Program-made: the position numbers and the translations under genes
DNA from: a virus
Virus record (IMG/VR): IMGVR_UViG_3300044463_000021
Location: 1-59,589 of that record
DNA: 59,589 bases
Direction: 5' to 3' (one strand)
Notes under the pieces: model-generated
The model's input: the letters and a program-made list of their open reading frames with translations, nothing else
The model's database searches: none
What the model was told of the DNA's origin: nothing
Shown here: piece by piece, positions 1 to 59,589 of the stretch
How positions within the stretch are numbered: position 1 is the stretch's first letter
Layout of the letters: each line of letters begins with the position of its first letter

Positions 1-119
1 CACCGGCACATCGTGCTCATCCTCAAAGTTCCAAGACAGGATCTTCGAGGCGAGCATTTCCGCGCACTGCTCCAACAACTCGTTGGACCGCTCGTCGCCG
101 AACGAGTCCAACAGCAGCA
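1..119. repeat. Terminal direct overlap. Bases 1-119 are identical to 59471-59589, indicating circular closure or terminal redundancy of a 59,470-bp unit.
   Basis: Both ends were read base by base. The string caccggcacatcgtgctcat...gagtccaacagcagca is present at both termini. Confidence 0.95.
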
Positions 120-4480: not shown

Positions 4481-4646
4481 CGGGTGCCGCCGCAGGTTTC
4501 GTCTTCGCCTTCACGGGTGCGGGCGTAAGCATGTCCAGGTGTTCGGGTGAGCCCTGCTCCACATGCTCGGAACTCGCGCACTGCGGGCATTTGGGCACGC
4601 CCGGCGCGTAGGCCGTCGTGCACGACGTGCAGATCGCGAGTGCCAT
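4473..4646 (-). CDS. Small zinc-ribbon protein (57 aa), not in the ORF track.
   Basis: Hand translation gives MALAICTSCTTAYAPGVPKCPQCASSEHVEQG... The start overlaps the stop of the LamG gene (TGATG), and there is an 8-nt overlap with the next gene. Confidence 0.55.
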   Translation of the reverse strand: MALAICTSCTTAYAPGVPKCPQCASSEHVEQGSPEHLDMLTPAPVKAKTKPAAAPDA

Positions 4647-6085
4647 CAGCAAACACCGACCATCGGCGCGGTGTAGCCGTACAAGGTTTGAACCTCAGCC
4701 GCGGTCAACGCTTTCCCGGTGAGGAACGGCATCGCGATACGGCCATGAAACTCGGCCACCGGCGTCGCAGTCACCCCTGAGCAGCCGACCGTCAAAGGTG
4801 CGGCAGTGTTCTCCATCGCCGTGTAGGTGCCCGACTCGGTCGTCGGCCCGTCACCGTTGGACGCCGTGCCGTTGATGTAAAGCAGGACGACCGGCGACGT
4901 TTCCCCACCGTCGTAGGTGGCCACCACGTGGATCCACTGGCCGATGGTCAGAGCGCTGTCGGAGACGGCGATCTCGGTGGCGGACGCGGACGCGTCGTGC
5001 AACTCGAGGGACAACTTGCCGTTGGAGTCGATGAAAAACCGCCACTCCTCCAAGTTCCCGGCGCTGTCGTACTTGCCCATGATGACGTTGGTGACGATCG
5101 CGTTCGGGCGGACCCACGCACCCACGCTGAACGCGGCGTCGACACTGCCGTCGCCGAAGGAGTAGTTGGTTGAGTCGATGCCGGCCAGATGATGGTCGCC
5201 GGTCGGGTGGAAATGGTAGGAGTACAGGCCGGACGGCAGCATCAGCGGCGCGAAGTCGTCCTCCAACGCCTCCGCTGCCCCCGCAGTCTCCGACGGGACC
5301 AAATCCCCCACCGAGATACCGGAGACCAGACCGCCGGACGCCTCCCAAAACGGCCACAGCGACGGCTTCGTCGTGCCGAGCACGGTCATGATGTCGTTCA
5401 AGCGGCCCTCGGTGCCGCGGATGTAGGTAGCCATCTTGCGGCGCCTCCTGCTAGCTGGAATCGAGATCGTGAAGCTGACGGTGAGCATGTACCGGTCGGA
5501 GGCGTTGGCCCCGGACCAGGACACCTGCGGGGTTTCCGCCGCGGTGCCCGCGTTTTCCTTGTAGGCGACATAGCCGCGGACCCCGGTCGCCCCGGAGCCT
5601 TGCGCGGCGCTGGAGGTGAGTTCGGTGAAACCGGCCGACCACACCGGTGTGTTCTGGTCGGCCAGCCCGATCGAATGCAACGCCCCGAACGCGATGACCA
5701 GCTGCCCGGTGCTGGACAGGGTGCCGGTGGAATGGGCCGGGGTCGACGCGGCGGCAACCCCGTCGACGCGGGTGGATGTCGAAATGTCCAACGCGACCGT
5801 GTTGGGCCACCGGGACCAGCCCACATGCGTGTCATGGTCACCGGTCGTCGTGATGGTGACCGTCTGCGGTTCACCGCCGGTAGCCTGGCGAATATAGATG
5901 TAGGTGCCCTGGTCGTTGACATTCGTTTCCGCCAACGACCAGGCCGCCCCACCCGTCGAGCTGACGGCGGTGATGACCGTGTTGCTGTTTATGCAGAGCA
6001 CATCCGTCTCGCCGACAGCAGGGGCCGACCCCATATCGCAGAGGTGACCACCGCTTCCGTCGGCGAAAAGAAATGTGCCCGCCAT
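4646..6085 (-). CDS. LamG (concanavalin A-like lectin) domain protein (479 aa) in the head module.
   Basis: The C-terminal half reads FSVGAWVRP...VIMGKYD...EEWRFFIDSNGKLSLEL...GQWIHVVATYDG...LLYINGT...FHGRIAMPF, the typical LamG_3 pattern. An internal RRRRKMATYIRG could mark a second start. Confidence 0.6.
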   Translation of the reverse strand: MAGTFLFADGSGGHLCDMGSAPAVGETDVLCINSNTVITAVSSTGGAAWSLAETNVNDQGTYIYIRQATGGEPQTVTITTTGDHDTHVGWSRWPNTVALDISTSTRVDGVAAASTPAHSTGTLSSTGQLVIAFGALHSIGLADQNTPVWSAGFTELTSSAAQGSGATGVRGYVAYKENAGTAAETPQVSWSGANASDRYMLTVSFTISIPASRRRRKMATYIRGTEGRLNDIMTVLGTTKPSLWPFWEASGGLVSGISVGDLVPSETAGAAEALEDDFAPLMLPSGLYSYHFHPTGDHHLAGIDSTNYSFGDGSVDAAFSVGAWVRPNAIVTNVIMGKYDSAGNLEEWRFFIDSNGKLSLELHDASASATEIAVSDSALTIGQWIHVVATYDGGETSPVVLLYINGTASNGDGPTTESGTYTAMENTAAPLTVGCSGVTATPVAEFHGRIAMPFLTGKALTAAEVQTLYGYTAPMVGVC

Positions 6086-6097
6086 CGTCTACCCGCC

Positions 6098-7030
6098 TTA
6101 TGCCGCAGCCGAAGCGGTGCCCCAGGCGCCGCCACGCTCACCGGCAAGGTTGACCACCAGCGGGTTGTAAACCGCACCAGCCGCCGCGACGATGGCCAGG
6201 TTGAACCCGTCCGCATCGTTGGTCGCAGACTGGATCATCGGGTTGATGATGACTGCCGTGTTCCCCGCAGCCAGTGCGATACCGGAGTCCTTGGTGGCGT
6301 GGGCCTGTCGGCAGAACGCGCCGACGATCATCGTGTCCGTCGCCGAAGCATCCGAGAAGATCGTCCCCGACGAGTGGATGCCCACACACCAGGCTTCCTC
6401 GATATAGACCCCGTCGATGACACCCGAAATTTTGATCGCCGCCACACCGGCGTCACCTGCCGCGCCGAGGAACCTTGGGCGGATCAGGCGCGCCCGCGCC
6501 GCGCCGGTGTGCAGCCGCAGCCACAACACGAACTGTTTCGTCGTCCCGTCTTCGCGACCATGGATGTCGACAAGGGTGCAGTCCGCACCTGTCACCACAA
6601 TGCCGTCGACCACGTCGACAGCGGTGTTCGCGACGCACAGCAGGTTGACCCACTTCGTCGACGCCGCCGAAATGAGCATGGTCCCGTCGGTGGTGGTGAA
6701 GTTGAACGTCGGCCGGGTCGCCCCCGAACCCAACCCGATGACCGTCACACCGGCAATATCGGCGGTCACCGCACCCGCCGAACCGACCGTCTCGGTGTGA
6801 CCTGGCATGACGTAGACGACGTCGCCGGAGGTGACCAGGTCCGAACTGTAGGCGTACGACAGCGACGCCAACGGGGCGTCGGGGCGTCGGCCGTGGCCGG
6901 TCGCGTCGGTGCCGGTGGCCGAGTTGACGAAGAACACGTTGCCCGGCGTTTCACCAATGTCGACAACGGTGACAATCCCGGCACCGGACCGGGCGAAAAG
7001 CGGGGTGTAGGCGGAAGTCTGTGCAGCCAT
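6098..7030 (-). CDS. Right-handed parallel beta-helix (pectate-lyase fold) protein (310 aa) in the head module.
   Basis: The N-terminus FFVNSATGTDATGHGRRPDAPLASLSYAYSS..SGDVVYVMPGHTE is followed by short G/V/A/T-rich repeats. A strong RBS AAAAGGAG lies upstream. Confidence 0.55.
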   Translation of the reverse strand: MAAQTSAYTPLFARSGAGIVTVVDIGETPGNVFFVNSATGTDATGHGRRPDAPLASLSYAYSSDLVTSGDVVYVMPGHTETVGSAGAVTADIAGVTVIGLGSGATRPTFNFTTTDGTMLISAASTKWVNLLCVANTAVDVVDGIVVTGADCTLVDIHGREDGTTKQFVLWLRLHTGAARARLIRPRFLGAAGDAGVAAIKISGVIDGVYIEEAWCVGIHSSGTIFSDASATDTMIVGAFCRQAHATKDSGIALAAGNTAVIINPMIQSATNDADGFNLAIVAAAGAVYNPLVVNLAGERGGAWGTASAAA

Positions 7031-7074
7031 CGTGGCTCCTTTTCGGGGTTATGCATTGACCCTTGTTGGAATGT

Positions 7075-7103
7075 GGCCCTCCCACCCCACCAGCGGGAGG
7101 GCC
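7075..7103 (-). terminator. GC hairpin, a terminator or attenuator downstream of the 171-aa gene.
   Basis: GGCCCTCCC (7075-7083) pairs with GGGAGGGCC (7095-7103), giving a 9-bp stem and an 11-nt loop. There is no clear U tract. Confidence 0.4.
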
Positions 7104-7110
7104 GGTCCGG

Positions 7111-7626
7111 TTAGGACAGCGGCGCGACAAGGTTCGCCGGGGTGCGCTGCACCATCAGATCCCGCAGCACATAAATACACGTCGACAGCTGGGCGTTCGA
7201 ACCTTCACCACCCGAGTTGAGGGAGATGTAGTCGTAGCCGTCGGAGAGCTGCTTGTTGTCGACCTCGATGACCAAAATTTGTTCCTGCTCAGCCGAAGTG
7301 CCCGCACCACCCGCCTCGACGATCTCCGACGCCGCCGTCTGGGTCAGCTTCGACCAGGTTTCATCACCGTCCAGCGTGGTCTCCGACTTCAGGTAGTAGG
7401 CGGCGATGATGTCCAAGTCGGCCGTGGTGCCACCGGTGGACGCGGTGTGCTGCTGCAGGTCATACGAGTGGTCGTCACCGGCAGTGCCGGCCGCTTTGAT
7501 GACCAGGATGGTGCAGCCGCCCGCATTGCGCAGCGACACCCGCTTGCCGGTCTGCGCGGTCTGCGCGTCTACGGGCGACCAGCCGATGCTGACATCGAGC
7601 AGGCGACCCAAGGCGTCTTGTGACAT
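7111..7626 (-). CDS. Putative head decoration or accessory protein (171 aa).
   Basis: It lies immediately after the major capsid gene, is flanked by hairpins on both sides, and has the RBS GAAGGAAAG. Confidence 0.4.
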   Translation of the reverse strand: MSQDALGRLLDVSIGWSPVDAQTAQTGKRVSLRNAGGCTILVIKAAGTAGDDHSYDLQQHTASTGGTTADLDIIAAYYLKSETTLDGDETWSKLTQTAASEIVEAGGAGTSAEQEQILVIEVDNKQLSDGYDYISLNSGGEGSNAQLSTCIYVLRDLMVQRTPANLVAPLS

Positions 7627-7685
7627 TTGCTTTCCTTCTCTCGTTTAGGTTTCCCGTTCGGGGCGAGACTGCCGCCCGGGTGGAA

Positions 7686-7717
7686 GCGGTGGGCGGGGTT
7701 TGAATGCCACCCACCGC
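7686..7717 (-). terminator. Hairpin, a terminator or attenuator downstream of the major capsid gene.
   Basis: GCGGTGGGCGG (7686-7696) pairs with CCACCCACCGC (7707-7717), with one mismatch. Confidence 0.45.
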
Positions 7718-7723
7718 CAGATA

Positions 7724-9187
7724 TCAGCGCGCTTCGATCTCGACGAAAGGCGACAACGTGGGGCCGCCGTTCTGAGGTGTGATGGGGCTGGCGAGCCACG
7801 GACGGCCGTCGACGCGTTGGATGATGCGGTAGGCGGTCTGGTCGTTGCCGAAACGCCAGTCCGTCGAGGAACTCGCGGTCATGATCTGCCGGTCACCGAC
7901 CAGGTAATAGGCGAGATCGACAAAGGACAGGTCCGAACGGTCACCGAGACGGCCGGCCTTCTCCGACACGACCAGCGGACGGCCGAAGATGTTCACCGGC
8001 GCGGGACCGGTCACGTTCGTCAACATCACCGGACCGCCGCCGGTACCCACCGACAGCGCCATCGTGAACAGCTGCGGCAGAGCCTCCGGCGAGCAGATCC
8101 AGATCCCACGCGCGAGCGAAGACGGCAGCATGCGGGAGTACATCTTGATGACGTTCTCCAGCACGATCGTGTCCGCCGACTGGCTGGTCTCCTTGGTGAT
8201 CGCGATCGCGGCGTCGTTGGCCGCGCCGAGGAACCCCTTGGGCTCGCCGACACCGTTGCCGGCCATGAACGCAACATCCTCGAAGAAGGCCAACGCTTGC
8301 GGCCACAGCCTTTCCACCAGCGCCGAGAAGGAGATCAGCGAATCCTGCAGCAACTCGTTCGGAACCACCGACAGGCCGGTGAGCTTCTTGGCGTCGAGCT
8401 CCACCCGCCCAAACTTCGGGCTGGCGTCGGTGAGCGCCGCGCTCTCCTCACCCCAGTAGGCGATCATCCCGCCGACCACGGAGCCCACATTGGTCGTCGA
8501 GTCGATCATCGGGAACGGGACGCGTGCCGTCTCCATCGGCACCACCGTCGCCCGCGGACGGACAACCGACATCTCCAGCGCAATCTCCAAAAGCTGTGAG
8601 CGCAGCGTCTCCGGCACCAGGAAACCACCGTCAGACGGGACGACCGAGCTGTACGCGTTGCGAAGTTTCGCCATCTTCGACTGCAACGCTTCGTCGCTGT
8701 TGCGGTGCCACGACGCGTAGATGAACTCGCCGGCGGTGGCGAACTCCTTGTCCAATGCTGCGCCCGGGGCCTGCGGGTTGTGTGCGGTGGCCTGCTTGTG
8801 CGAGTTCAGCATCGACGCCGGCCGGTTAGCCGGGTTCAGGTTGAGACGCTTGATCCCGTCGCGGGAACCGTCCTGGTCGTTGTCCTTCAGAAAATTGGCG
8901 ATCCCACGCTGAATCTCGACCTGAAGGTCCTGCTGGACGTTCGGGCCCTGCTTCTCCTTGTACGCCTGGATCCAGCCACCAAGGCCGCCGCGGCCGTCGC
9001 CCGCGATCTGCGCGAACTTGATGTCGTCGGCCAGGATCTCGGCGAGTTCGTCGGCGTTCGCCGGGATCGGCACCCCGTTCTTGGGCGGAATCAGGGTGGC
9101 CTTGTTGCAGAAACGGCCGACCCGGTTGCGTGCTATGCCGAGCTGCCGCAGCCGTGCCGCCGCCCCAGGCATCAGTTTGGTGTTCAC
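7724..9187 (-). CDS. Major capsid protein, HK97 fold, with an N-terminal delta or scaffold-like domain (487 aa).
   Basis: The C-terminal ~300 aa read FLVPETLRSQLLE...VVRPRATVVPM...KLTGLSVVPNELLQDS...AFFEDVAFMAGNGVGEPKGFL, typical of the HK97 family. The gene follows the protease gene. Confidence 0.9.
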   Translation of the reverse strand: MNTKLMPGAAARLRQLGIARNRVGRFCNKATLIPPKNGVPIPANADELAEILADDIKFAQIAGDGRGGLGGWIQAYKEKQGPNVQQDLQVEIQRGIANFLKDNDQDGSRDGIKRLNLNPANRPASMLNSHKQATAHNPQAPGAALDKEFATAGEFIYASWHRNSDEALQSKMAKLRNAYSSVVPSDGGFLVPETLRSQLLEIALEMSVVRPRATVVPMETARVPFPMIDSTTNVGSVVGGMIAYWGEESAALTDASPKFGRVELDAKKLTGLSVVPNELLQDSLISFSALVERLWPQALAFFEDVAFMAGNGVGEPKGFLGAANDAAIAITKETSQSADTIVLENVIKMYSRMLPSSLARGIWICSPEALPQLFTMALSVGTGGGPVMLTNVTGPAPVNIFGRPLVVSEKAGRLGDRSDLSFVDLAYYLVGDRQIMTASSSTDWRFGNDQTAYRIIQRVDGRPWLASPITPQNGGPTLSPFVEIEAR

Positions 9188-10068
9188 TTACTTCCCTCTT
9201 TCAGTAGGGCAGACAGCACACTGTCGCCATTCGACGGTGTGGTGAGCAGCGAGCTCAGAATCGAGTCCACTGAAGTCGCAGTAGTCGCCTGCGCGGGTAC
9301 GAGCGCGGGTACGCGGGAAGGCCTCACCCGCGCACGGGCGGGCACAGTCACCGGCTTGGGTTGCGGTGCCGCCGCTTCCACCACCGGCACCGCCTCGGTC
9401 AGGTCCGGTGCGGGCGCATTCCTGCGCCCCGCATAGTTGAAAACGGACAGGTCCCAGGTGGCCTTGATGGTGCGCGAAGGCACCGCCACCTCGTCGGCCA
9501 GCCCCGCCTGGACAGCCTCTTCGGCCGAGTACCACGTTTCCGACCGCATCCGGTTGCGCCAGTCACCGACGGTTCCGCCCGCCCGTTCGGCGTAAAACCC
9601 GGCGATCGTGTCCGAGACGGTGTCCAACAGGTCGGCCTGCTTGCGCATGTCCGCTGCCGCGCCGACAGCCACCGTGTGCCCTTCGTGGATCATCATCTGT
9701 GAGCCGCGGGCCATGACAATCCCGCCCGTGTCGGTTGCCTTGTCGTACGGGTCGGCAGCCATAGCGATGACGCTCGCGATGGACGCCGCGACCCCATCGA
9801 CGGTGACCCGCACCTTGGCCCGGTGGTTCGCTATCGCGTTGTGGATGGCGATCCCGTCGAACACGTCACCACCCGGGCTGTTGATCCGCACGTCGATGCT
9901 CTTCGCATCCAACGTGCCAAGTTCTTTGCACAGGGCGTCGGCGGTGATACCCCACGCGCCGATCTCCGCATAGATGTGCACTTGGGCGGTGTCGGCCACA
10001 TTTTTGATGCCATACCACGACTGCGGTACAGGCTTGCGGGCACGCGGCAGCATGTTGTTACGCCTCAC
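9184..10068 (-). CDS. Prohead (capsid maturation) serine protease, ClpP/S14-like (294 aa).
   Basis: IDVRINSPGGDVFDGIAIHNAI...GVAASIASVIAMAAD...GSQMMIHE. An alternative ATG lies at 10053. Confidence 0.85.
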   Translation of the reverse strand: MRRNNMLPRARKPVPQSWYGIKNVADTAQVHIYAEIGAWGITADALCKELGTLDAKSIDVRINSPGGDVFDGIAIHNAIANHRAKVRVTVDGVAASIASVIAMAADPYDKATDTGGIVMARGSQMMIHEGHTVAVGAAADMRKQADLLDTVSDTIAGFYAERAGGTVGDWRNRMRSETWYSAEEAVQAGLADEVAVPSRTIKATWDLSVFNYAGRRNAPAPDLTEAVPVVEAAAPQPKPVTVPARARVRPSRVPALVPAQATTATSVDSILSSLLTTPSNGDSVLSALLKEGSK

Positions 10069-10211
10069 CGGCGTCCCCTTCGGTTGTTTTTGGCAGGGTT
10101 GTACTCGGGCTCAACCTCGACGGCGGCAGGCTCAACGGGTTCGGTATCGGCAGGCTCGGCCTGATCCTCAGCCCAAACGTATTTGCCACGGCGATACTCG
10201 TCAGCGTTCAC
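10065..10211 (-). CDS. Small acidic protein (48 aa), not in the ORF track.
   Basis: GTGA overlaps occur at both ends. Hand translation gives VNADEYRRGKYVWAEDQAEPADTEPVEPAAVEVEPEYNPAKNNRRGRR. Confidence 0.4.
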   Translation of the reverse strand: MNADEYRRGKYVWAEDQAEPADTEPVEPAAVEVEPEYNPAKNNRRGRR

Positions 10212-13200
10212 CGCGCGACCTCCACGTCGAGCACGTACGCCCCGCCCCAGTCGCCCTTGAGTTCTCCCCGGCCGTGCTGGGCCACGACCCGGAAGGTCAG
10301 ACCGCGGTCCAGCAGAATTTCCGACTCCTGCTGATCACGCTCTGTCCCTTTACGGTCAGCCATGCGGATCGCCGAGGTGCCCTCTGGGACCGTGATCCGC
10401 AGGACCGTTCCACCGAACCAAGAAGCATGTGCTGCGTCGGTAGTGGTGGAGACGAAGGCCTTGTCGGTGAACTCTTTGCCGACAAGGTTGCGTCGCTCGC
10501 CGATCGCCTCATCCGGCCTGACGCCGCCGATCCTTTCGGCACCGCGATACACAAGGATCGGCTCGGGCAGTGGACTTTCGGCCATCACCGCGTCGATTGC
10601 TTTGACGCGCGCTTTGGTCTCGGGCGTCATCTTCTCGGTGCCCCGCATTTGCGCGCTCATCTCGAACGAACCCGGGCGGCCAGATGCGGTTTCCGCCCTG
10701 TTGTCGCCCGCCCGATACCACAAGGCGTCAGCTCGGGGGTCCTTGGCCGCAGTTAGGGCATCCAGGCTGCGTGGCAGCACAGCCAGCGCGGCATCGCCGG
10801 TAACTGCATCAGGGCTAGTCCGCCGGTCCGTTTGCGTTTCGGCAGGCACAGCCTTCTTGCGCGGCTCCGCCTTCTTGCGTGGGGCACGTTTCGCCGGGGG
10901 CTTCGGTGCAGGCTCGGCCTCCGGAACGGCCACCACCTCAGGCACATCGGGCAGCTTCTTGCCCCGCCCAGGCCTGCCGTGCACCTTCTGGTCTGGGTGC
11001 CCTGGATGGTTATACAGCGCCTGCGGCAGTACGACCGCTGTATTCGACACGTCACCGGCCAGAGACCGGTCAGCCAACTCCTCCAACAAGTCTGCGAAAT
11101 CGGCGGCCTCGTCAAAGTCTTCGAGCAGCAGGACATCTGTCTCGGCCTCGTCGGGATTGCCCACCTTGTCGGATGGCCCAATCTCCACCAGCCCACTGGT
11201 CCACAGCAGCGCAGACAGCTCACCATGATCGCCGAGCGGTACGCGGCTTAGCTCGACATGCTCATCGCCCAGCTTCCACCCGGGAAGGGTGGTGGCCCGG
11301 AACCCATCCAGAACGCCAGCAAGCTGCTTCGCCTCTTGAGGGGGTAGGAAAAATCCGCCGTTGTCGAAGTCCAGGGTGATATCGCCGTCGCCAGCGATCG
11401 ACATCGACACCTCGCCGTAGGCGGTCTCCATCGACGCCTCACGCCGGTTCGCCTTCGCATGCCTGCGCTCGCGGAGGTCCTTCAACGCCTCCAACGCGGT
11501 TTCGGCCTCACCGTTGTCGTCTTCGTCCTCACCCATGTCCTTCGTGAGCTTCGACAGTTTGGCCATCAGGTCGTCCAGTTCGGACACCACCTGACCCGCA
11601 GACTTGGAAAACCGGCCACGACGGTCACGTTTATGCTGCGACTCGGTGAACTCCGCACGCGGCAGACCGGCACGATTCGCCAGCGGACGCCACACCACCG
11701 CCTGCGGGAGGCGAGGAGCAGCGTTCTCGATACCCGGCCACTCCTCATAAGAGCCGAACGTTTCGATCGCCTCAAACGCCTCGAATGCCGGATGCCGATA
11801 GTCGCCAGGCCACGCGACCTTCCAGCCACCGTCCACGGGGCCGAAACTCAACGTCTCCGACCCATAATTCGGATCGTCTGGTCCACCCGTTATCGCACCG
11901 TCCCGGTGGACCCGAACGCGGCCCAAGTTAGTGTCAACATCGATCGTGTCCACATCCGGGTACACGACGTCACCGTTGTCATCCTCACCGGCCTTGACGA
12001 AGGTCTCGAACTCGTCGAAGCCCTCCCAGACAACGTTCTGGGCGTTCCGGATCCGAGTCCATGACTTGCCGTCAAAGGCAGGCTCCACCACCGTGCCGTC
12101 AGCGGCGTTCAGCCTCAAGCCGACTTTGCGGTCATCGGTGGGGAACACATCCAAAGGCCCCGACGCCATCGCGACGCGTGACACACCCGCTGACCGGCGC
12201 ACCGACTGTGACAAGGCTCCGGCTTCAGCCCGCGAAAGTTTGATCTTCTCGTCGGAGTCGAGCAGCTCCAACTCAACGAGGCCTTCGCCGTCGTAGGAAA
12301 CCTCGGCGAACCCAGATGGCTGGCTACGGTCGCCGCCGTCGTCGGGATAGGAGTACACCGACTTCCGGTCGGCGTCGTAGTCCGGATCGGCCGCGCTCTC
12401 CAGCACCTCAGCCAGCTTCCACCGCGCACCATTGTCCAGCCCACCCGACTTGCCTGTACCGCCCGCATTGTTGGCCAAAGACAGCTGCAAACCGCCCTTG
12501 CCGACGGTTGCGGTGACAGTTCCGTTGGCGAACATGTGCTCCCGGTGGAAGGCAGGGATACCGCCGAACGCCGCCCATTTCCCGTCGTCGTCGCGGCGTT
12601 GGGTGGGGTCGTATTTGGCCAGGCGTTGCCGGGACTGCTGCACCCGCACCTGAAAAAACACCGTCCCAGCCAGGTTCGACACCGACGGAGCGGCCACCAG
12701 CAGCATGTCCACGAACACGCGGCCCTCATCCGGATCGTCGAGCTGAAGAACACCCTCACCATCTGGATCGTCAACCACATCCGGGTCACCGATCTGGAAG
12801 ACACCAGAACCACCGCGGGTGACCTTCAGCTCCCCGTCGGCTGTGGTGAACTCGCCAACCACAGCGTTGTAGTCATCCCAGGCAGGTGACTCGTACCACT
12901 CATTGAGCTGCTGATGCCACCACTGCGAATACTCCTCCCGTGTCGTGACCGACGCGGGCACCTCCCACTCGGGAAGCTCCGGAGACGCAACGACAGGCAG
13001 AGCCGCGAACTCGTTGATCGCAGCCGACACCTCCCGTGCCTGCTGTGGCGTGAACCGGACACTGCCCTCGTCCCAGTCGACGCCTATGTCACCGTCGGTG
13101 TACGTCGTGAAGGCCAACTCGCCGCTGGCGGAGTCCATGACCAGACCGCGGCCATCGTCTTCGGGCTCGTCCACGTTCAGGTCGTCGTCGTCCACATCGG

Positions 13201-14308
13201 ACGACTCCAACCCGCGCAGCTGATCCATCGCCCGGTCAAGTTCAGCCCGCTCGTCGTCGCCCAGCTTGCCGCGCAACGCCTCCAGCTTCTCCAGCACCGA
13301 ACCGAGGGCACCCGTTCGCGTAAACCGGCCCTTGCCGTCACGTTTGTGCAGGCTCTCGTTGAAGTCGGCGCGCAGCAACAGCGCCTGCGCCTGCTCGAAA
13401 CGCATCCCCATCAACTCGACGATGATCTCGTCCAGGTCGCGTACCTTCGTGCCGGACAGCCGCTGCCGCAATGCACGCAGCGTCGCCAACGCTGCTGCCA
13501 CGTCAGGCTCGACCTGCGCCCGCAGGCGTGCAGTATCAGCCGCATCCTTCTTGCCGTGCGTCAGCGGAATGTCTGTGACCTCACCAGCGAACGCCACCCG
13601 GATACGGTCGAAGGCAATCAGGCCGACCCGGTCGGTCAGCTCCTCCACCCGGCCCGCATCATCGGTGTACTCAAGCGTCAGGTGCGGAACGAAAGGCTTG
13701 TGTGGCTCGGGCAGGTCCGCGCCATAGTCCTCAACCGCCGTCTCGGCAGCGGCATGCGCTTTGACGATGTCGTCGCCGCCCAAGCCGAGCACGACACATG
13801 GCTCGTCGCCAGCGGGATTGAAGATCGCCACGTTGAACGCGTCAGCGGTGAACGGGCGCAGCTGCTCCGCATAGGCGCGCACCAGTTCGATCAGATGCTC
13901 GCGTGACTGGGCGCTGAAGTCCGCGCCTTTGCCCAGATAGCGCAGGGTGACGTGAAGCTCATCGGCTGGCTCACCACCCTCGACTGCCAGCCGTGTCGCA
14001 TCGGCGGCTGTTGGGACCAGTGCGATCATCGCACCCGTGTGCGCCTCGGCAGCAGCACGTGGCCGTGTCAGCACATCCGCACGGGCCAACACGCCGATAC
14101 CGGCAATCAACGCCAGCGCATCGGCCACAAAGGCGTCCTGCGCATCGCCAGCAGCATCCAGATCCGCGTGATGCTGGTTGTAATCGGAGCCATCCACGCG
14201 GCCTATCGGACTGAACGCTGAGCCCGCCGAGTGCACGTTCGCCAACGCCCACTTGGTGTGCAGCTGGCGAACAGCCCGCAGCCGCTCCTGCCTCGGAGTC
14301 AACGTCAT
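10208..14308 (-). CDS. Giant head-module multidomain protein (1366 aa) with a 2H phosphoesterase (LigT-like) domain and a C-terminal ADP-ribosyltransferase domain.
   Basis: H-x-T motifs ELHVTLRYLG and VPHLTLEY. ART triad LVYRGAE, FVSTTTD, QESEILLD. Repeated HKRDxxGRF-type motifs. The start was taken at the ATGA-coupled ATG 14308; the track ORF extends to 14362. Confidence 0.75.
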   Translation of the reverse strand: MTLTPRQERLRAVRQLHTKWALANVHSAGSAFSPIGRVDGSDYNQHHADLDAAGDAQDAFVADALALIAGIGVLARADVLTRPRAAAEAHTGAMIALVPTAADATRLAVEGGEPADELHVTLRYLGKGADFSAQSREHLIELVRAYAEQLRPFTADAFNVAIFNPAGDEPCVVLGLGGDDIVKAHAAAETAVEDYGADLPEPHKPFVPHLTLEYTDDAGRVEELTDRVGLIAFDRIRVAFAGEVTDIPLTHGKKDAADTARLRAQVEPDVAAALATLRALRQRLSGTKVRDLDEIIVELMGMRFEQAQALLLRADFNESLHKRDGKGRFTRTGALGSVLEKLEALRGKLGDDERAELDRAMDQLRGLESSDVDDDDLNVDEPEDDGRGLVMDSASGELAFTTYTDGDIGVDWDEGSVRFTPQQAREVSAAINEFAALPVVASPELPEWEVPASVTTREEYSQWWHQQLNEWYESPAWDDYNAVVGEFTTADGELKVTRGGSGVFQIGDPDVVDDPDGEGVLQLDDPDEGRVFVDMLLVAAPSVSNLAGTVFFQVRVQQSRQRLAKYDPTQRRDDDGKWAAFGGIPAFHREHMFANGTVTATVGKGGLQLSLANNAGGTGKSGGLDNGARWKLAEVLESAADPDYDADRKSVYSYPDDGGDRSQPSGFAEVSYDGEGLVELELLDSDEKIKLSRAEAGALSQSVRRSAGVSRVAMASGPLDVFPTDDRKVGLRLNAADGTVVEPAFDGKSWTRIRNAQNVVWEGFDEFETFVKAGEDDNGDVVYPDVDTIDVDTNLGRVRVHRDGAITGGPDDPNYGSETLSFGPVDGGWKVAWPGDYRHPAFEAFEAIETFGSYEEWPGIENAAPRLPQAVVWRPLANRAGLPRAEFTESQHKRDRRGRFSKSAGQVVSELDDLMAKLSKLTKDMGEDEDDNGEAETALEALKDLRERRHAKANRREASMETAYGEVSMSIAGDGDITLDFDNGGFFLPPQEAKQLAGVLDGFRATTLPGWKLGDEHVELSRVPLGDHGELSALLWTSGLVEIGPSDKVGNPDEAETDVLLLEDFDEAADFADLLEELADRSLAGDVSNTAVVLPQALYNHPGHPDQKVHGRPGRGKKLPDVPEVVAVPEAEPAPKPPAKRAPRKKAEPRKKAVPAETQTDRRTSPDAVTGDAALAVLPRSLDALTAAKDPRADALWYRAGDNRAETASGRPGSFEMSAQMRGTEKMTPETKARVKAIDAVMAESPLPEPILVYRGAERIGGVRPDEAIGERRNLVGKEFTDKAFVSTTTDAAHASWFGGTVLRITVPEGTSAIRMADRKGTERDQQESEILLDRGLTFRVVAQHGRGELKGDWGGAYVLDVEVAR

Positions 14309-15204
14309 GGAGAGGTCACCCCGCGCCAACTCGACCCCATCAAAATTGCCTTGCCGATCCACCAGTCATCCCGACCGGCGCCCGGCCAACGACCCACCTG
14401 GGAAATCTCAAACGGCGTCGGGTTTTCCGCATTACCCTCGGCGGCCGCGAACAGGCGCTCCGACAGTGCCTCGGCTGCCGCCAGCTGCTCCTCGCGGCGC
14501 TCCTGCCTTATCAGGTCAACGCGAAGCGGGTACTTCTCATCGGCGAGTGAGGCCTCACCGCTCAACGAGTCAATGGCCGCAAACGCGCGCTGGGCTACCT
14601 TGTCGAAGTCTCGCTCTGACGCCCAGTCATAGCCCTTACGTGCCCATGCGTAGCCGCCCACGTCAATGTTGGCGGTCAGCTCCACCCGCTCAATGCCGCT
14701 GTCGCGGTACCAGCGAAACAGGTGCTGGTTGAAACGTTCGGCAAAGCCCTGCCCCTGAACTGTCCGGTCCAGCTCGAGCAGCGTGTGTTCAACCGAGATC
14801 CCGTCTGTTTCGTCAGCCGTGACGGTGCGAACGAAATGGCCAACCTTATTGCCGTCGCCGTCGCGAACACTTCCGCTGATCTTCGTTTCGCCGTCGGACA
14901 CCGCGATGGCTACATCCGATGTGGACAGGTCGCCAAATGTGCCCGTGAAGCCCTCTACTATCGCGGCTCTTACGTCGGCGTCTAGATCGTCGGAATCATC
15001 GCCGAATTCGGGCTGGCCAAGGAACTTGCCGACATTGGCAATAGCGTCGTAGACGCTTATGCCAAAGTCTTTGGCGAACTTGCCGTCGTCGTCGCGTTTC
15101 TGGCCTGGATCAAACTTCGCGATCGTCGGTCGCAGCAGCGTTTCTGCTCGGGCCAGCACGGCCGCCGACTCCCGCGCGCGCGCAAACAACGTTGGGGTCG
15201 TCAT
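14305..15204 (-). CDS. Head-module protein (299 aa) with a KRDDDGKF motif and a GNAT-like acetyltransferase core.
   Basis: ATG at 15204 overlaps the portal stop. FDPGQKRDDDGKFAKDFG. LELDRTVQGQGFAERFNQHLFRWYRDSGIERVELTANIDVGGYAWARKGYDW resembles GNAT motif A. Confidence 0.45.
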   Translation of the reverse strand: MTTPTLFARARESAAVLARAETLLRPTIAKFDPGQKRDDDGKFAKDFGISVYDAIANVGKFLGQPEFGDDSDDLDADVRAAIVEGFTGTFGDLSTSDVAIAVSDGETKISGSVRDGDGNKVGHFVRTVTADETDGISVEHTLLELDRTVQGQGFAERFNQHLFRWYRDSGIERVELTANIDVGGYAWARKGYDWASERDFDKVAQRAFAAIDSLSGEASLADEKYPLRVDLIRQERREEQLAAAEALSERLFAAAEGNAENPTPFEISQVGRWPGAGRDDWWIGKAILMGSSWRGVTSP

Positions 15205-18200
15205 CAGCCCGCCGCCGGATTCCACGTCGCCTTCACAGTTCCCCGACATCGGTCCCGGCCGAGGCAGCCCCGATACTTGCCGCCGCCGTAGTCCACCCAC
15301 GCCGCGATCCACGACGGATAGACGGTGCCGTCGACAGCACCACACTGAATGCAGTTATGGACGAGCACGCCCTCGGTCCAGAACGTCTCGTCGCCAGGGA
15401 CCGTGAAGTCGTATACCTCACCGCAATAATCGTCGTACTCGACACGGGAAATCGTTGACAGCACTACAATTGAGGTATCGAAAAGGTCTGCATCACCTGT
15501 GGCAGAGCGGTCAAGAAGGGACCGCTCTGCAAAGGATGTTCCGTCCGGGCGGCCTGGCATCGCCGAAACCCGGACTACACGCCGCCCACTTGCAAACTGT
15601 GCGGAATCGTCATGACCAAGTCCAACAGGGCCACCGCTGTGTACTGCTCCAACGCATGCAAGTTCGCCGACCCCGAAGTTCGGGCCAAGCTCGGCGCGCC
15701 GAAGCGCGGCCCCATCAAGACTTGCCCCGGATGTGGAACGGACTTCCAAGTCGCTGCCGGTATCGCCCACCGCTACAACTACTGCTCCAAAGCTTGCAGC
15801 AACAACCGTGGAGTCGACGCGATCTGCCAAAGGTGCGGATCCGCCTTCCGGCACAGCCGGACCCAGAACCGCCACTACTGCAGCGAGGCCTGCCGGCGAC
15901 CCCCCATCATCGTCAGCTGCGCTCACTGCGGCACCGAGTTCAGGATCTTGCCAGCCAAGTCGGGCATCAACAACTACTGCACCCAGCGGTGCTACTTTGC
16001 CAGCGGAACCGAGACCAGCATCGAACGTGTGGTCCGCGAAACCCTCGAATACCTGGGCTACAGCCACCGGACCCAGGCCCAGATCGGACGCTGGACTGTC
16101 GACTTTGTTGTCGGTACCTGGCTCGTCATCGAAGCAGACGGTGCCTACTGGCACTCGTTGCGCCCAGATGTTGACCTGCGGAAGACCACCGACCTGTCCC
16201 GGCGCGGCTTCCATGTCTGGCGACTGCCTGAGTCCGAAATCCTCGCCACCGGGTTCGCCGCAGACCTTGAGCGTCGCTTGGTCGACCACGAGGTCGCCTT
16301 CGGCGAGATCGCCCGCTTCACGCCAGGCGAATCCATCCCCGTCGCGTACCAGCACAGGGTGGTCCCACGTCAGGCGAAGCGTTCTGCCGTCCGCCAGGTG
16401 CACCCTGGTCAGCTGCTCATGGACTTCGGAGACGGTGATTACTGACGGCCTCGTCCAGTTGCCCGCATGGGTCAGCAGTTCGTCGTCGAGGGTGACGTCC
16501 TTGGCGTAGACAAGCCCCGCCGGTGTGGTCACCCGCATGTCAGGCGCGAGACACGTATTGACGTCGTTCACTTCGGCGCTGCTGTAGATGATCTGCGGGA
16601 CGTAGTCGTCATCAACGGGCAGCACTGGATCGCCGGGAGACCCGGGGTCGCCGCCCGCCGCTGACTCCACCTCACGCGCCCCAAGCAGACGCCCCTGATT
16701 TTGGGCACGCGTCAGGACACCGCCCAGCTGCCCCGACAGCGCCCGATCCGACAGGCCGTCCAGCGCACCATCCACTGCAGCCAAAACCTCGGCCGGCGGC
16801 ACGCCAGGCGCGAACGCAGACACCGCAGCCCTCGCCGCCACAGCCGCAAACCCGGCACCGAGAAGGACTGCGGCGGCCACAGCCACCGGACCCAACATCG
16901 ACTCATCCGGGGCCGGCGGCTCCACCACAGGTGCACCCTGCGCCGCCAGATCGTCCACCACCCGCTGTCCCGACACCGCCGCAAGGTCTGTCATCGCCGC
17001 CGTGATCGCAGCAGCAGCCTCACCCGTCGACACCGACATGCGCGCGAGAGCGGCAGGGTCGTTCGCGGCGACCGCCTGCTCCACCTGGGCACGGATCTCC
17101 ACACGCTGAGCCGCAGACACCGCGGGCCACGCCGCCAGCAACGCTGCCAGCGCTGTCTCCCAGTCGCCCTGCACACCCGCCAGCTCCGGATCATCCGTCG
17201 GCGCCTGATTGCGTAGCGTCGGCGCGAGCAGTGCCTGCAACGGATCCGGCTTACCCGCAGGCTTACCGCCCGGCACACCGGGGGCTGCAGGCGGGGCTGG
17301 AGGCTCAGGCTTCTCAAACTTGATGGCTGGCAGCCCAAACTTTTCACACGCATCCGCGAAATCAGCACCCAACGGCACCAGGGTGGCGACCGCTTGAACC
17401 CTCGACGTCCGCGACGTGTTCTCCGCCTCAGTGTCCTCCGAAACCGGGGACACGTAGTCGAACTCCAGCCCGACACCCGTGCTGCCGAACTGCGGCAAAA
17501 CCCTCCGGTTCAGGGCACCCTTCCAGCGTTCCAGACGCGGTACGAGCAGCCACTGCGCAAACATGGCGATCGACGCCTCGCCCTGCGCCCGGTTGACATC
17601 GTCAACCTCGCCCAACGCAAACTTGGGGAACCCGTACGCCTGCTTGATGCCGGCCTCGGTCACCCCACGCAGCTCGGTGAACTGCATGTCCCGCTGCGAG
17701 ATGGTCCGCTCAACCCACTTGCCGTGCTCCAGCAGCGCCACCCGGTGCGCGTTGGCTACGCCGCGGTGCTGCTCATTCCACCGTTCACGCAGCTCGTTGA
17801 ACTCGTTGTCGGACAGCGTCTTGGGGACTTCGATGATGCCGCCCGGCTCCGCAGAGTTGAGGAAGAAGTTGCGGTTCCACTCCATGCTGTACCGGGTCGA
17901 GTCGATGTCGGCCTGCACCGAGCGGATCGGACCCAGGCCGCGGTAGTGGTTGTTCGGGTCCGGCCGGCGGATGAACACCACATCGGTGGGCAGCAGCGGC
18001 ACCGGCTCACCGTCAGGGGACCGGTACACGTAGCCGAGGAGGAACTTTTTCGCATCCGGGACCGGTTCCATCCGGTCCGGGCGGATCGGCCACAACTCCA
18101 GCGGGATCGACGCCTTCGACGATTTGCCGATCACCAGCCACGTTTCGCCGGTCAAATCCTGATGCTGCTGCCCAGCCTCGAAAAGTTCCTGCCGCGAGTA

Positions 18201-18515
18201 GAACCGGTTGGGTTCCTGAATCAGGTCCAGGGCGGCGTGGGAGGTGACCTCGGTCCGGTCCTCCTTCAAGCCCGACTTGGCTTTCTTCCACAGCTTCCAC
18301 TCGACGAGGCTGACCGAGGTGGCGAGGCGGTCGACGATGCCGAACACGACACCCGCCGCGTCCATCGCGCTCAGCGCCTGCGTGGTACCCGGATTGCGCA
18401 GCTGCGATGAGAAGATCCCACCTGATGTACGGCCGGTCATCGGCACAGGCGTGTCCATCGTTGCCGGCGCGACGTTCGCGGGGCGGGACAGGACAGCACC
18501 CAGGAACGACTTCAT
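15204..18515 (-). CDS. Portal protein (HK97 family) fused to a MuF-like head morphogenesis domain, interrupted by a 400-codon intein.
   Basis: Portal-type N-terminal ~400 aa. The MuF C-terminal motif is split as ...SSAEVNDVNT / intein / CIQCGAVDGTVYPSW. ATGA coupling to the upstream small gene. Confidence 0.9.
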   Translation of the reverse strand: MKSFLGAVLSRPANVAPATMDTPVPMTGRTSGGIFSSQLRNPGTTQALSAMDAAGVVFGIVDRLATSVSLVEWKLWKKAKSGLKEDRTEVTSHAALDLIQEPNRFYSRQELFEAGQQHQDLTGETWLVIGKSSKASIPLELWPIRPDRMEPVPDAKKFLLGYVYRSPDGEPVPLLPTDVVFIRRPDPNNHYRGLGPIRSVQADIDSTRYSMEWNRNFFLNSAEPGGIIEVPKTLSDNEFNELRERWNEQHRGVANAHRVALLEHGKWVERTISQRDMQFTELRGVTEAGIKQAYGFPKFALGEVDDVNRAQGEASIAMFAQWLLVPRLERWKGALNRRVLPQFGSTGVGLEFDYVSPVSEDTEAENTSRTSRVQAVATLVPLGADFADACEKFGLPAIKFEKPEPPAPPAAPGVPGGKPAGKPDPLQALLAPTLRNQAPTDDPELAGVQGDWETALAALLAAWPAVSAAQRVEIRAQVEQAVAANDPAALARMSVSTGEAAAAITAAMTDLAAVSGQRVVDDLAAQGAPVVEPPAPDESMLGPVAVAAAVLLGAGFAAVAARAAVSAFAPGVPPAEVLAAVDGALDGLSDRALSGQLGGVLTRAQNQGRLLGAREVESAAGGDPGSPGDPVLPVDDDYVPQIIYSSAEVNDVNTCLAPDMRVTTPAGLVYAKDVTLDDELLTHAGNWTRPSVITVSEVHEQLTRVHLADGRTLRLTWDHPVLVRDGDGFAWREAGDLAEGDLVVDQATLKVCGEPGGEDFGLRQSPDMEAAPGQVGGLPQVNIWAQRVPVGTVCFDDEPGTDNKVDSPASDLGLGPVAVAQVFEGFADHTFDAGLGSAGKVAPLGAVVVDARLGWQDPELGAAVSAADDDGGSPAGLAAVVAVLGPAVPEGGSAPLADRVDSTVVAASFGAVVVAVGDTGSDLEVRSTSGASLDGAALRRAELGPNFGVGELACVGAVHSGGPVGLGHDDSAQFASGRRVVRVSAMPGRPDGTSFAERSLLDRSATGDADLFDTSIVVLSTISRVEYDDYCGEVYDFTVPGDETFWTEGVLVHNCIQCGAVDGTVYPSWIAAWVDYGGGKYRGCLGRDRCRGTVKATWNPAAG
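15455..15470 (+). promoter_or_regulatory. Promoter-like hexamers TTGACA (15455-15460) and TACAAT (15465-15470) just 5' of the nested ORF frame opening.
   Basis: They sit in a local AT-richer patch. The spacing between the two hexamers is not canonical, so they cannot form one -35/-10 pair. Confidence 0.25.
15612..16445 (+). CDS. Antisense-nested endonuclease: a tandem zinc-ribbon array plus a DUF559/Vsr-like PD-(D/E)xK nuclease. It has 277 aa from the first ATG, and the frame is open from 15474.
   Basis: Four or five modules of C-x2-C-G...Y-C-[ST]-x2-C, then RWTVDFVVGTWLVIEADGAYWH...RRGFHVWRL. Plus-frame codons mostly end in G/C. The ORF lies wholly inside the intein. Confidence 0.65.
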   Translation: MTKSNRATAVYCSNACKFADPEVRAKLGAPKRGPIKTCPGCGTDFQVAAGIAHRYNYCSKACSNNRGVDAICQRCGSAFRHSRTQNRHYCSEACRRPPIIVSCAHCGTEFRILPAKSGINNYCTQRCYFASGTETSIERVVRETLEYLGYSHRTQAQIGRWTVDFVVGTWLVIEADGAYWHSLRPDVDLRKTTDLSRRGFHVWRLPESEILATGFAADLERRLVDHEVAFGEIARFTPGESIPVAYQHRVVPRQAKRSAVRQVHPGQLLMDFGDGDY

Positions 18516-18763: not shown

Positions 18764-18844
18764 GACCGTCTGTCAACCAACGTTTACGGCGGGACAGGCG
18801 GGAACGTGTGACAGCTGGTCACAAAAGTTGACGCACAGTCCAAA

Positions 18845-20347
18845 TCAGAGCCAGCGGACGTTCGGTCGCACGCCGGTGTGGAAGGCCAAAAGCAAGGCGT
18901 CTGCATTGTCGGGCGACCGCTTCAGCCGCTTGCGGATCTCCTCCTTCTTCTCCACCTGGATCTTGCCCTTGTCGTTGATGAACCACTGCGCCTCCAACAG
19001 CTGGGCCACGGTGGTGTCGGCGTTGTCCATGCGCGACAAATCCCAGCCGCCACGCTCCGACAGGATCCGGCCGACATCCCACCACAGCTGGGCGCGCAGG
19101 TTCTGGTACTTGTCCGACTCCGATGCACCCTCGGCCACGTTCACGCCGATGATCTGTGCACTGTGCACGCCCTTCACCGACAGGTTCCGCAGCTCGCCGA
19201 TGACACCGAAACCGACGCCGATCGAGTCGATTTTCACTGCTGTCGCACCCGTGTCCAGGATGGCCTTGAGGACCATTGGGGCGAGCAGCTCAGGCCTGTC
19301 GGTGTGCGCCCGCCACTCCCGGCCGGCCACCCGGCCGCGGCGTTCCCGGATCACCGTCTCATCCCCACCACCGCCCACGTCGACACCAAGCTCGACAGGC
19401 AGCAGATCGTCGGCTGTGTACTTCAGCTCATGGTCCAGGCGGCATTTGGCCACATCGGAGGTCCGCACGATCTGATGTTCGGAGTCCTCGCTGAACTCGC
19501 CCAGCACCTTCGACAGGTACAGCGGGTTGTCCTCACCCCACTCCAGGAGCTTCTCCTGCACCCAGTCTCTGCCGACCAGGGCCAGGGCGATCTCTTCCGG
19601 CACTTCCTCGCCGGTCAGGTTGGGGGAGTCGAACGCGGAGATGCCGATGACGTTCCAGCCCGAACCCGGCCGGCACACCTTGCGAAAGTAGGAGGCGGGG
19701 TTGTCGGGGTTGCCGATAGCGAACAGCCGGCAGTCGGAGTTGGTGGTCAACGCGTCCGCGGCGATCCACAGCTGCTCCGGAATTCCGCACGCTTCGTCGA
19801 TGATGACCAGGACGTAGCGGGCGTGGATGCCCTGGAAGGCGGCCTCATCGTGGTCGGCGGGTTTGCGGCCGAAGGCCACGAGTTCGTCGTCGATCAGCCA
19901 TTCCACCTGGTTGAGACGCCCGGACAGCCGCCCGCGGCGGAACGCCTTGCGGATGTAGCGCCACAGGATCGCCTTGACCTGGGCTCCCGTCGGCGCGGTC
20001 GAAACTACGAACGCGGTGCCGGGCGGGTGGGTGTCCAGCCACCAGCAGGCGATCAACCCCGCGGTCCAGCTCTTCCCGACGCCGTGGCCGGAGCGGACCG
20101 CGGTACGCCGATTGTCGCGGACCGACTCCATGATTTGCGCCTGTTTCGACCACACCTGCCAGCCGCGAAGCCGTTCCCGCACCCACCCGACCGGGTTGTG
20201 CTGGTACTTGGCGGCCATCTCCTTCGCGGTCTTCTTCTCCACCGCCGTCCTGAGCTGGTCGCGGATGGCTCGCAGGGCGCGGGTGTCACCGGCGCGGACG
20301 AGAGCGTTGACCTGAGCCTGGATCGACTCGATCGTCGGCGTGGTCAT
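18845..20347 (-). CDS. terL: Terminase large subunit (500 aa).
   Basis: Walker A-like RSGHGVGKSW, Walker B VLVIIDEACGI, and a C-terminal nuclease-type region. Confidence 0.9.
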   Translation of the reverse strand: MTTPTIESIQAQVNALVRAGDTRALRAIRDQLRTAVEKKTAKEMAAKYQHNPVGWVRERLRGWQVWSKQAQIMESVRDNRRTAVRSGHGVGKSWTAGLIACWWLDTHPPGTAFVVSTAPTGAQVKAILWRYIRKAFRRGRLSGRLNQVEWLIDDELVAFGRKPADHDEAAFQGIHARYVLVIIDEACGIPEQLWIAADALTTNSDCRLFAIGNPDNPASYFRKVCRPGSGWNVIGISAFDSPNLTGEEVPEEIALALVGRDWVQEKLLEWGEDNPLYLSKVLGEFSEDSEHQIVRTSDVAKCRLDHELKYTADDLLPVELGVDVGGGGDETVIRERRGRVAGREWRAHTDRPELLAPMVLKAILDTGATAVKIDSIGVGFGVIGELRNLSVKGVHSAQIIGVNVAEGASESDKYQNLRAQLWWDVGRILSERGGWDLSRMDNADTTVAQLLEAQWFINDKGKIQVEKKEEIRKRLKRSPDNADALLLAFHTGVRPNVRWL

Positions 20348-59375: not shown

Positions 59376-59589
59376 ACAGAAACACCCGTTGACGCCTTAC
59401 GGATCGCCCGGGTCAGCGCCTGAAAGAACGGGCCGTCCACATGCGACATGAACGCCTTCGGTGTGATCTCCACCGGCACATCGTGCTCATCCTCAAAGTT
59501 CCAAGACAGGATCTTCGAGGCGAGCATTTCCGCGCACTGCTCCAACAACTCGTTGGACCGCTCGTCGCCGAACGAGTCCAACAGCAGCA
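59303..59589 (-). CDS. Tail assembly chaperone, C-terminal part. The gene starts at 213 across the circular junction.
   Basis: ...DSFGDERSNELLEQCAEMLASKILSWNFEDEH... The stop lies at 59303-59305. Confidence 0.8.
   Translation of the reverse strand, partial: LLLDSFGDERSNELLEQCAEMLASKILSWNFEDEHDVPVEITPKAFMSHVDGPFFQALTRAIRKASTGVSVPLETPSGDGNSLEAQIPMEPLPS
59369..59375 (-). promoter_or_regulatory. Programmed -1 ribosomal frameshift heptamer CCCTTTA (X_XXY_YYZ).
   Basis: The plus strand reads TAAAGGG at 59369-59375. The phase was checked against the chaperone stop codon. Confidence 0.65.
59471..59589. repeat. Second copy of the 119-bp terminal overlap, identical to 1-119.
   Basis: Direct comparison of both ends. 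Confidence 0.95.

Follow-up and report, generated by a model that had tools for sequence, protein, structure and literature searches.

Phage polyvalent proteins, as defined by Iyer, Burroughs, Anand, de Souza and Aravind in 2017, are multi-enzyme polypeptides that are produced along with the head, enclosed in it and injected together with the phage DNA (PMC5512222). Domains of the 2H phosphoesterase, ADP-ribosyltransferase (ART) and GNAT types are all listed in such head-associated proteins, fusions of 2H domains to MuF or portal proteins were reported, a zincin-type processing peptidase is a common theme, and T4 Alt is the paradigm of a protein modifier delivered with the head (PMC5512222). 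The 2H domains of polyvalent proteins were proposed to act as RNases or as degraders of 2'-5' or cyclic nucleotide defence signals (PMC5512222), a proposal repeated in a 2022 survey that also describes Alt/VIP2-type ARTs fused to MuF (PMC9503650). Here we describe a locus of this kind in IMG/VR virus record IMGVR_UViG_3300044463_000021, all 59,589 nucleotides of which were analysed and are referred to as the window. Its 1,366-codon gene at 10208..14308 on the minus strand, which we call the giant gene, encodes a polyvalent protein as Iyer et al. (2017) use the term, a series of modules expected to fold independently and combining a predicted LigT-like 2H phosphoesterase, an ART and two further module types in one polypeptide encoded among head genes; judged from this context, the protein is probably a virion-delivered chain of effectors.

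The giant protein shares with the polyvalent proteins of Iyer et al. its large size, its multi-enzyme composition, its position among head genes and an enzyme repertoire (2H, ART and, in the neighbouring gene, GNAT) that is entirely on their list, but it lacks MuF, portal and zincin peptidase domains, and about 800 of its residues belong to two rare, uncharacterised modules, here named A and B. Like T4 Alt, an Arg-specific ART that is packaged in the head and injected, it has the R-S-E triad and an ExE motif and is encoded alongside late structural genes. T4 Alt carries an N-terminal capsid-targeting sequence and is cut by the gp21 protease; it is, however, a single-enzyme protein of a myovirus, whereas the ART described here is the last of five modules and belongs to a phage with a ClpP-type protease.

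Enzymes and repeated modules of the giant protein

The giant gene is an open frame, unbroken from 10208 to 14308, and its codon-position signature (GC1 > GC2 < GC3) is uniform across all domains of the 1,366-amino-acid (aa) product. From the N terminus, these are a LigT-like 2H domain (13508..14056, aa 85–267), a first copy of module A (12641..13381, aa 310–556), module B (11600..12640, aa 557–903), a second copy of module A designated A' (11030..11668, aa 881–1093) and, after a low-complexity linker whose translation is rich in Pro, Lys and Ala (10769..10966, aa 1115–1180), an R-S-ExE ART domain (10211..10768, aa 1181–1366), all on the minus strand. The N-terminal 84 aa gave no significant Pfam match, the sole hit at E ≤ 10 being TraL_transposon (E = 0.036; 14.3 bits against a cut-off of 27).

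An earlier, sequence-only reading of this DNA had proposed a LigT-like 2H core with two H-x-T motifs and an ART core with an R-S-E triad, and profile searches and alignments agreed with both proposals. PF13563 matched aa 114–228 above threshold (E = 6.9e-9; 36.4 bits against a cut-off of 27), and PHROG families labelled 'RNA ligase' or 'head maturation protease' matched aa 85–266 with E values down to 1.6e-28. The motifs H119-V-T121 (window 13946–13954) and H209-L-T211 (window 13676–13684) are in register with those of PH0099 (1vdx), and H119, T121 and H209 are invariant in the alignment of homologous domains (51 of 51). The five best PDB matches of the 2H family profile, although weak (E = 0.005–0.04), were all of the LigT/ThpR type (1vdx, 5ldi, 4qak, 2fyh and 1iuh); these RNA 2',3'-cyclic phosphodiesterases are its nearest solved relatives and, in the case of 1vdx, 5ldi, 4qak and 1iuh, have the two HxT motifs in common with it, alike in order and spacing. 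Since the score fell under the equivalog threshold of TIGR02258 (25.3 versus 65.7 bits), we classify the domain as a LigT-like 2H enzyme and not as a ThpR orthologue; unlike members of the LigT/ThpR family, it sits inside a head protein.

The C-terminal domain matched PF03496 over aa 1224–1341 (E = 2.7e-14 with the full protein and 1.5e-15 with the isolated region; 53.4–57.5 bits against a cut-off of 23.4), and sequence searches of PDB identified Lmo0066 (8za7_B, E = 1.2e-10), Vip2 and Certhrax. R1255 (in LVYRG), S1287-T-T and E1328-S-E1330 are in register with the R, STT and ExE of Lmo0066. In Vip2 (1qs2/9vej), the R, the S and the catalytic Glu lie opposite R1255, S1287 and E1330, and a residue other than Glu lies opposite E1328. 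In R-S-E ARTs, ExE instead of QxE points to an arginine acceptor, and the ExE motif suggests that arginine is also the acceptor here; the literature on Lmo0066 gave no pointer to the target of the ART. A KptA-type RNA 2'-phosphate pathway composed of the 2H and ART domains was considered and rejected because this ART is of the R-S-E, protein-modifying type.

An ART of this toxin-type family, with Lmo0066, Vip2 and Certhrax as its best PDB sequence matches, could also belong to a polymorphic toxin of the MuF-toxin type, released by a lysogen against competitors and not aiding the phage's own infection. C-terminal toxin domains following head proteins are known in temperate phages (Jamet et al. 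2017, PMC5576092), and the giant protein resembles these MuF polymorphic toxins in its toxin-type C-terminal domain and in the location of its gene beside the portal. We nevertheless consider this explanation quite unlikely: MuF polymorphic toxins have an N-terminal MuF domain and a downstream immunity gene, whereas no MuF domain was detected in the giant polypeptide by Pfam, the 139-nt gap between the end of the giant gene and the protease start contains no open reading frame (ORF), let alone one the size of an immunity gene, and the polypeptide carries several enzyme modules in place of one variable C-terminal toxin. The comparison with MuF-linked toxins drawn in the sequence-only reading therefore fits poorly, as there is neither MuF in the polypeptide nor room for an immunity gene.

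The region between the two enzymes contains an internal repeat, as had been predicted: aa ~308–555 and ~879–1087 are 29% identical (E = 7e-22) and define the two copies of module A, of which about 20 were found across 17 proteins. In an AlphaFold2 model of module A, with a mean predicted local distance difference test score (pLDDT) of 82.9, a helical hairpin leads through a disordered acidic run into a compact alpha/beta domain, for which pLDDT is >94. Foldseek found no convincing PDB fold counterpart of this model (best E = 0.1), and a marginal match among viral models (BFVD) to a 'T4 y05I-like putative transcription factor N-terminal domain' (E = 8.6e-4) was not used to assign an identity. 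Module B has no Pfam match; it is 49% identical to the related proteins P0001 and P0091 and also occurs free-standing, in proteins of ~319 aa (P0096 and P0098). Both modules are rare, given that an exhaustive HMMER search with aa 291–1109 (819 aa) returned 49 matches among 1.84 billion representative proteins; a word-indexed search with the same middle region returned only 4.

Modules A and B together account for ~60% of the protein and show no enzymatic signature; they include stretches of helical hairpin and of acidic residues, and relatives often join them to prohead proteases, features that would suit a mainly structural internal-head or scaffold protein in which the modules organise procapsid or DNA and the enzymes are minor passengers. 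We regard such a role as very unlikely, because the invariance of the 2H catalytic residues across homologues and the intact ART triad argue for selection for enzyme activity, and because the content of the gene's slot varies among close relatives, unlike that of an essential scaffold.

The gene immediately upstream (14305..15204, minus strand) encodes a 299-aa protein and is translationally coupled to both neighbours: the portal stop and its own ATG overlap in TGATG, and its TGA overlaps the ATG of the giant gene (14308–14306) in ATGA. The sequence-only reading had assigned it a GNAT-like core, an assignment that stands at the level of fold but not at the Pfam gathering threshold. An AlphaFold model built from 32 sequences (pLDDT 82.7; predicted template modelling score (pTM) 0.71) retrieved exclusively GNATs among the top 50 Foldseek matches in PDB (E from ~2e-4, probability 0.99–1.00, with TM-scores of 0.3–0.5 on the target), many of them protein N-terminal acetyltransferases. 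The predicted core spans aa ~76–200 (window 14605–14979) and is followed by a conserved C-terminal extension of ~70 residues. It contains the putative acyl-CoA binding motif A as Q150-G-Q-G153-F-A155, with G151, F154 and A155 invariant and Q152 and G153 conserved in ≥90% of 32 family members. The protein itself scored below the PF00583 threshold (13.2 versus 20.7 bits), and we therefore describe it as GNAT-fold or GNAT-like without placing it in a curated family; 14 of the 32 family members do match PF00583 (best E = 1.7e-4), and the family profile reached E = 0.09–0.17 against PDB. Several of its 38 relatives are named GNAT by JGI and two are fused to MuF (P0062 and P0071).

One relative, P0065, continues after its GNAT-like domain into a segment (aa 352–418) that matches aa 6–72 of the giant protein (window 14093..14293, minus strand; 49% identity, E = 1e-21), which links the two adjacent genes of the window by fusion or fission. 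Another member of the GNAT-like family, the 467-aa protein P0072, has an N-terminal motif, WNPSLHPRGPDGRF, an ART-like domain (PF03496, E = 2.8e-4, below threshold) and then the GNAT-like domain, a layout indicating that an ART and a GNAT-like domain can share one polypeptide; the same N-terminal motif is present in P0075 and P0078.

A proposed cargo slot between portal and prohead protease

The minus-strand head genes run in the order candidate terminase, portal, 299-codon gene, 1,366-codon gene, ClpP-type prohead protease and HK97-type capsid. The flanks are a portal gene with PF04860 at aa 56–366 of its product (15204..18515), a ClpP-type prohead (capsid maturation) protease (9184..10068; PF00574, E = 3.9e-29; PHROG head maturation protease, E = 1.3e-77) and an HK97-type major capsid protein (7724..9187; PF05065, E = 2.2e-44), all on the minus strand, which confirms the placement of the giant gene between portal and prohead protease given in the earlier reading. 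The candidate terminase (18845..20347, minus strand) had sub-threshold Pfam matches only.

The head-module position of the cargo is conserved in three related contigs, L001, L002 and L004, each with its own slot content: an 885-aa protein composed of modules B and A plus a small ORF in L001, a 1,123-aa protein composed of 2H and module B in L002, and a kinase-like protein plus a 632-aa protein composed of module A and ART in L004. The GNAT-like and giant genes of the window thus occupy a variable cargo slot between portal and prohead protease. The kinase-like gene of L004 (2740..3624, plus strand) encodes a PI3/PI4-kinase-like domain and stands in place of the GNAT-like gene, and domains of the same type lie within the 2H proteins P0014 and P0032; such substitutes suggest that the protein-modifying enzyme at this slot is interchangeable.

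Shuffling of the same domains extends to covalent fusions with head proteins. Portal, module A and ART form one protein in P0097, and MuF, module B and 2H form one protein in P0100, while module B is fused to a ClpP protease in P0099 and P0108 and to an S78 protease in P0117. Fusion partners across the 2H family comprise MuF, Mu-type protease, ClpP, NUDIX, PI3/4-kinase-like and peptidoglycan-binding domains. The 1,752-aa protein P0031 unites MuF, 2H and ART in a single polypeptide, which weakens the novelty that the sequence-only reading had implied for the pairing of ART and 2H.

These fusions bear on whether the enzymes reach the head at all. Unpackaged enzymes, active only in the producing cell late in infection, would owe their head-module position to late co-expression; for example, the 2H domain could mend tRNA or RNA ends left by host anticodon nucleases, with the ART and GNAT-fold proteins remodelling host proteins. 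The affinity of the 2H domain for LigT/ThpR RNA 2',3'-cyclic phosphodiesterases is in keeping with such a role, and RNA-repair roles were noted for other phage 2H domains (PMC9503650), but the 2H versions found in polyvalent proteins are never associated with RNA ligases (Iyer et al., PMC5512222). We consider the intracellular explanation unlikely, because relatives fuse the same modules covalently to portal, MuF and prohead proteases, which makes head incorporation hard to avoid, and because the modules carry a short motif (see below) that recurs in portal-, MuF- and protease-linked proteins.

Cultured actinophages have parts of this system, with the two enzymes occurring separately at the corresponding genomic location. 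The 2H family is shared with gp11 of Streptomyces phage Maih, annotated as 'capsid maturation protease and MuF-like fusion protein', and with Gordonia phage genes 17–20, annotated as 'RNA ligase'; these cultured-phage homologues are 37–48% identical to the giant protein over aa 78–268. The 1,187-aa gp9 of Streptomyces phage Intolerant, annotated as 'ADP-ribosyltransferase', has a C-terminal VIP2-like ART and is encoded directly after the portal and MuF genes. Each of these phages holds either the 2H or the ART domain and lacks modules A and B as well as the short motifs (absent from both Maih gp11 and Intolerant gp9), and megablast of window positions 7000–19000 against 50,697 INPHARED phage records found no nucleotide similarity to cultured phages.

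Short motifs at the starts of modules

Modules A, B and A' of the giant protein each open with a short motif, on the minus strand throughout: FNESLHKRDGKGRF opens module A (13322..13363, aa 316–329), YDPTQRRDDDGKW opens module B (12575..12613, aa 566–578) and FTESQHKRDRRGRF opens module A' (11609..11650, aa 887–900). A motif of another type, NHPGHPDQKVHG, which we call HDQ-type, precedes the linker and ART (10976..11011, aa 1100–1111), with motifs of this type also present in P0002 and P0037, and FDPGQKRDDDGKF lies in the predicted disordered N-terminal region of the GNAT-like protein (15076..15114, aa 31–43, minus strand). The sequence-only reading had pointed to such motifs in the giant protein and to the same type in the upstream gene, and a six-frame scan of the whole window found the motif class nowhere outside these two genes.

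Three types were distinguished among the relatives: K-[FY]-D-P-x-Q-P-R-D-x-x-G-[KR]-[WF] followed by a Gly-rich stretch, H-L-P-G-x-H-[DN]-Q-x-x-H-G, and N-P-L-H-P-G-P-C-K-G-W. All were enriched 40-fold or more in 135 related proteins, with 88 occurrences of the RD..G[KR][FW] type against 2 expected, 14 of the H..G.H[DN]Q..H type against 0 expected, and 4 of HPGPCKGW against 0 expected. They lie 10–100 residues from the N terminus in short proteins and recur every ~250 residues in long ones. The types appear interchangeable, in that KRD and HLPGxHDQxxHG forms fill the same alignment columns at the start of module A in different proteins and all three alternate at the N termini of the GNAT-like family. 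In the models of the GNAT-like protein (pLDDT <50 at aa 30–52) and of module A, the motifs fall in low-confidence regions that are presumably flexible.

The motifs are also widespread. Two strict back-translated DNA patterns each retrieved at least 80 IMG/VR loci (L005–L164), and 165 instances gave the consensus K-[FY]-D-P-x-Q-P-R-D-x-x-G-K-W-T-x-G-G-G-G. Pfam domains in 96 sampled motif-bearing ORFs included ART families, MuF, four portal families, Zeta toxin, DUF3626, S78 protease, topoisomerase IB, PNKP-type phosphatase, PI3/4-kinase-like, NUDIX, HNH, 2H, GNAT and glutamine deamidase, and one protein has four lethal-factor-type metallopeptidase domains with a motif before each. The motifs therefore label, across many phages, the modules of effector proteins linked to the head. 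Literature searches by motif string or on packaged effectors found no description of them, and neither the polyvalent-protein paper (PMC5512222) nor the MuF-toxin paper (PMC5576092) mentions them. A tblastn search of cultured phages with the 28-aa consensus gave no match, for which the short query is a probable cause.

We tentatively propose, at rather less than even odds, that these motifs constitute an interchangeable, widespread and so far undescribed phage head-cargo signal. By analogy with the T4 capsid-targeting sequence and with encapsulin cargo-loading peptides, one possible role is that of a docking peptide that loads the modules into the HK97-fold procapsid; another possible role is that of a site at which modules are released at maturation. 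A simple recognition site for the ClpP-type protease was rated less likely, as S78-type as well as ClpP-type proteases accompany the motifs and no motif is present in the window's capsid gene; their occurrence with both protease types points instead to a partner common to all these phages. We therefore favour docking or loading, possibly with cleavage nearby, over simple protease recognition, although the retention of motifs in proteins that are already fused to portal or MuF speaks against a docking or loading function.

Genome context and proposed delivery with the head

The window, a JGI metagenome contig, begins and ends with an identical direct repeat of 119 bp (1..119 = 59471..59589), and its sequence therefore appears to be a complete, circularly assembled phage genome of ~59.47 kb. 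Its G+C content is ~65%, and the phage is a siphovirus-type actinophage with an actinobacterial-type genome. Downstream of the head genes, a 479-aa protein (4646..6085, minus strand) has a C-terminal Laminin_G_3/concanavalin-like lectin domain (E = 2e-18) and may, on the basis of that domain, be a tail fibre or receptor-binding protein.

The sequence-only reading had described MuF as fused to the portal, which we could not support by any of three approaches. With the limit relaxed to E ≤ 10, Pfam still showed no MuF in the intact portal, the intein-spliced portal or the C-terminal half taken alone; a jackhmmer search recruited 0 of 25 PF04233-annotated proteins; and hhalign against the N termini of PF04233-bearing relatives gave a probability of 3.9%. 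The C-terminal half is homologous to the N-terminal parts of the 2H-bearing proteins P0030, P0034, P0035 and P0044 (E ~1e-25). The only possible reminder of MuF is a C-terminal CxxC...CxxxxxC pattern.

The portal does have a C-terminal domain, which is Cys-rich and interrupted by a 400-aa intein (15354..16553, minus strand; Pfam Intein_splicing) that the sequence-only account missed. The predicted spliced portal has 703 aa, against 712 aa for the intein-less portal of L001. A plus-strand ORF (15474..16445) runs antisense to the middle of the intein and encodes zinc ribbons together with a DUF559/Vsr-like endonuclease (E = 1.5e-8 in Pfam), and L002 has the same arrangement of intein and antisense endonuclease (5046..6008, minus strand). 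Between the window and L002, the endonuclease frame is 66% identical, with changes in excess at third codon positions (92/62/130 over the three positions) and 81 synonymous versus 107 non-synonymous changes, whereas the intein frame is 51% identical, with 31 synonymous versus 157 non-synonymous codon changes. The intein frame contains no stops in either phage, compared with 11–13 in the other two antisense frames. Together, the substitution pattern and the stop counts indicate purifying selection on the antisense endonuclease gene while the intein frame is merely kept open, and the element resembles an intein that has its homing endonuclease gene on the complementary strand.

For the giant protein itself, the reading that we consider probable, delivery of a chain of effectors with the virion, would proceed from synthesis to substrate as follows. 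The protein would be made late, together with the head proteins, incorporated into the procapsid, probably cut or tethered at the short motifs before its modules and, when the next cell is infected, released from the capsid along with the DNA. Once inside the cell, the ART, presumably an Arg-type mono-ADP-ribosyltransferase, may modify host proteins in the manner of T4 Alt; the 2H domain may hydrolyse 2',3'-cyclic-phosphate RNA ends or 2'-5'/cyclic (oligo)nucleotide defence signals; and the co-translated GNAT-fold protein may acylate a host protein.

Several points weigh against this course of events. Neither a MuF or portal domain nor a zincin-type processing peptidase is recognisable in the giant protein, passage of a 1,366-aa protein through the tail channel would require unfolding or cutting, and virion incorporation, cleavage and ejection are read from context. 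In addition, the closest relatives of the 2H domain are housekeeping LigT/ThpR enzymes, so that a late intracellular function on RNA ends is conceivable. We also caution against viewing the injected-effector interpretation as new: the sequence-only reading had arrived at it, and it fits the head-slot position that is kept in relatives, but Iyer et al. (2017, PMC5512222; 2022, PMC9503650) had already anticipated it, including the role of 2H domains against nucleotide signalling.

The locus nevertheless adds a well-resolved case to the head-delivered polyvalent effectors, with a predicted LigT-like 2H, an ART and a GNAT-fold protein in one cargo slot of an apparently complete genome. It would be a convenient system in which to study the role of such enzymes just after an actinophage infects its host, and to ask, for example, if a 2H enzyme carried in the head destroys alarm signals made of cyclic or 2'-5' nucleotides. 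Of broader interest are the module-initial motifs. To our knowledge, the targeting of internal proteins outside T4, P22 and P1 is largely unexplained, and if the motifs are a loading or release signal they would provide a sequence handle for packaged effectors in metagenomes and a route for putting foreign proteins into phage heads.

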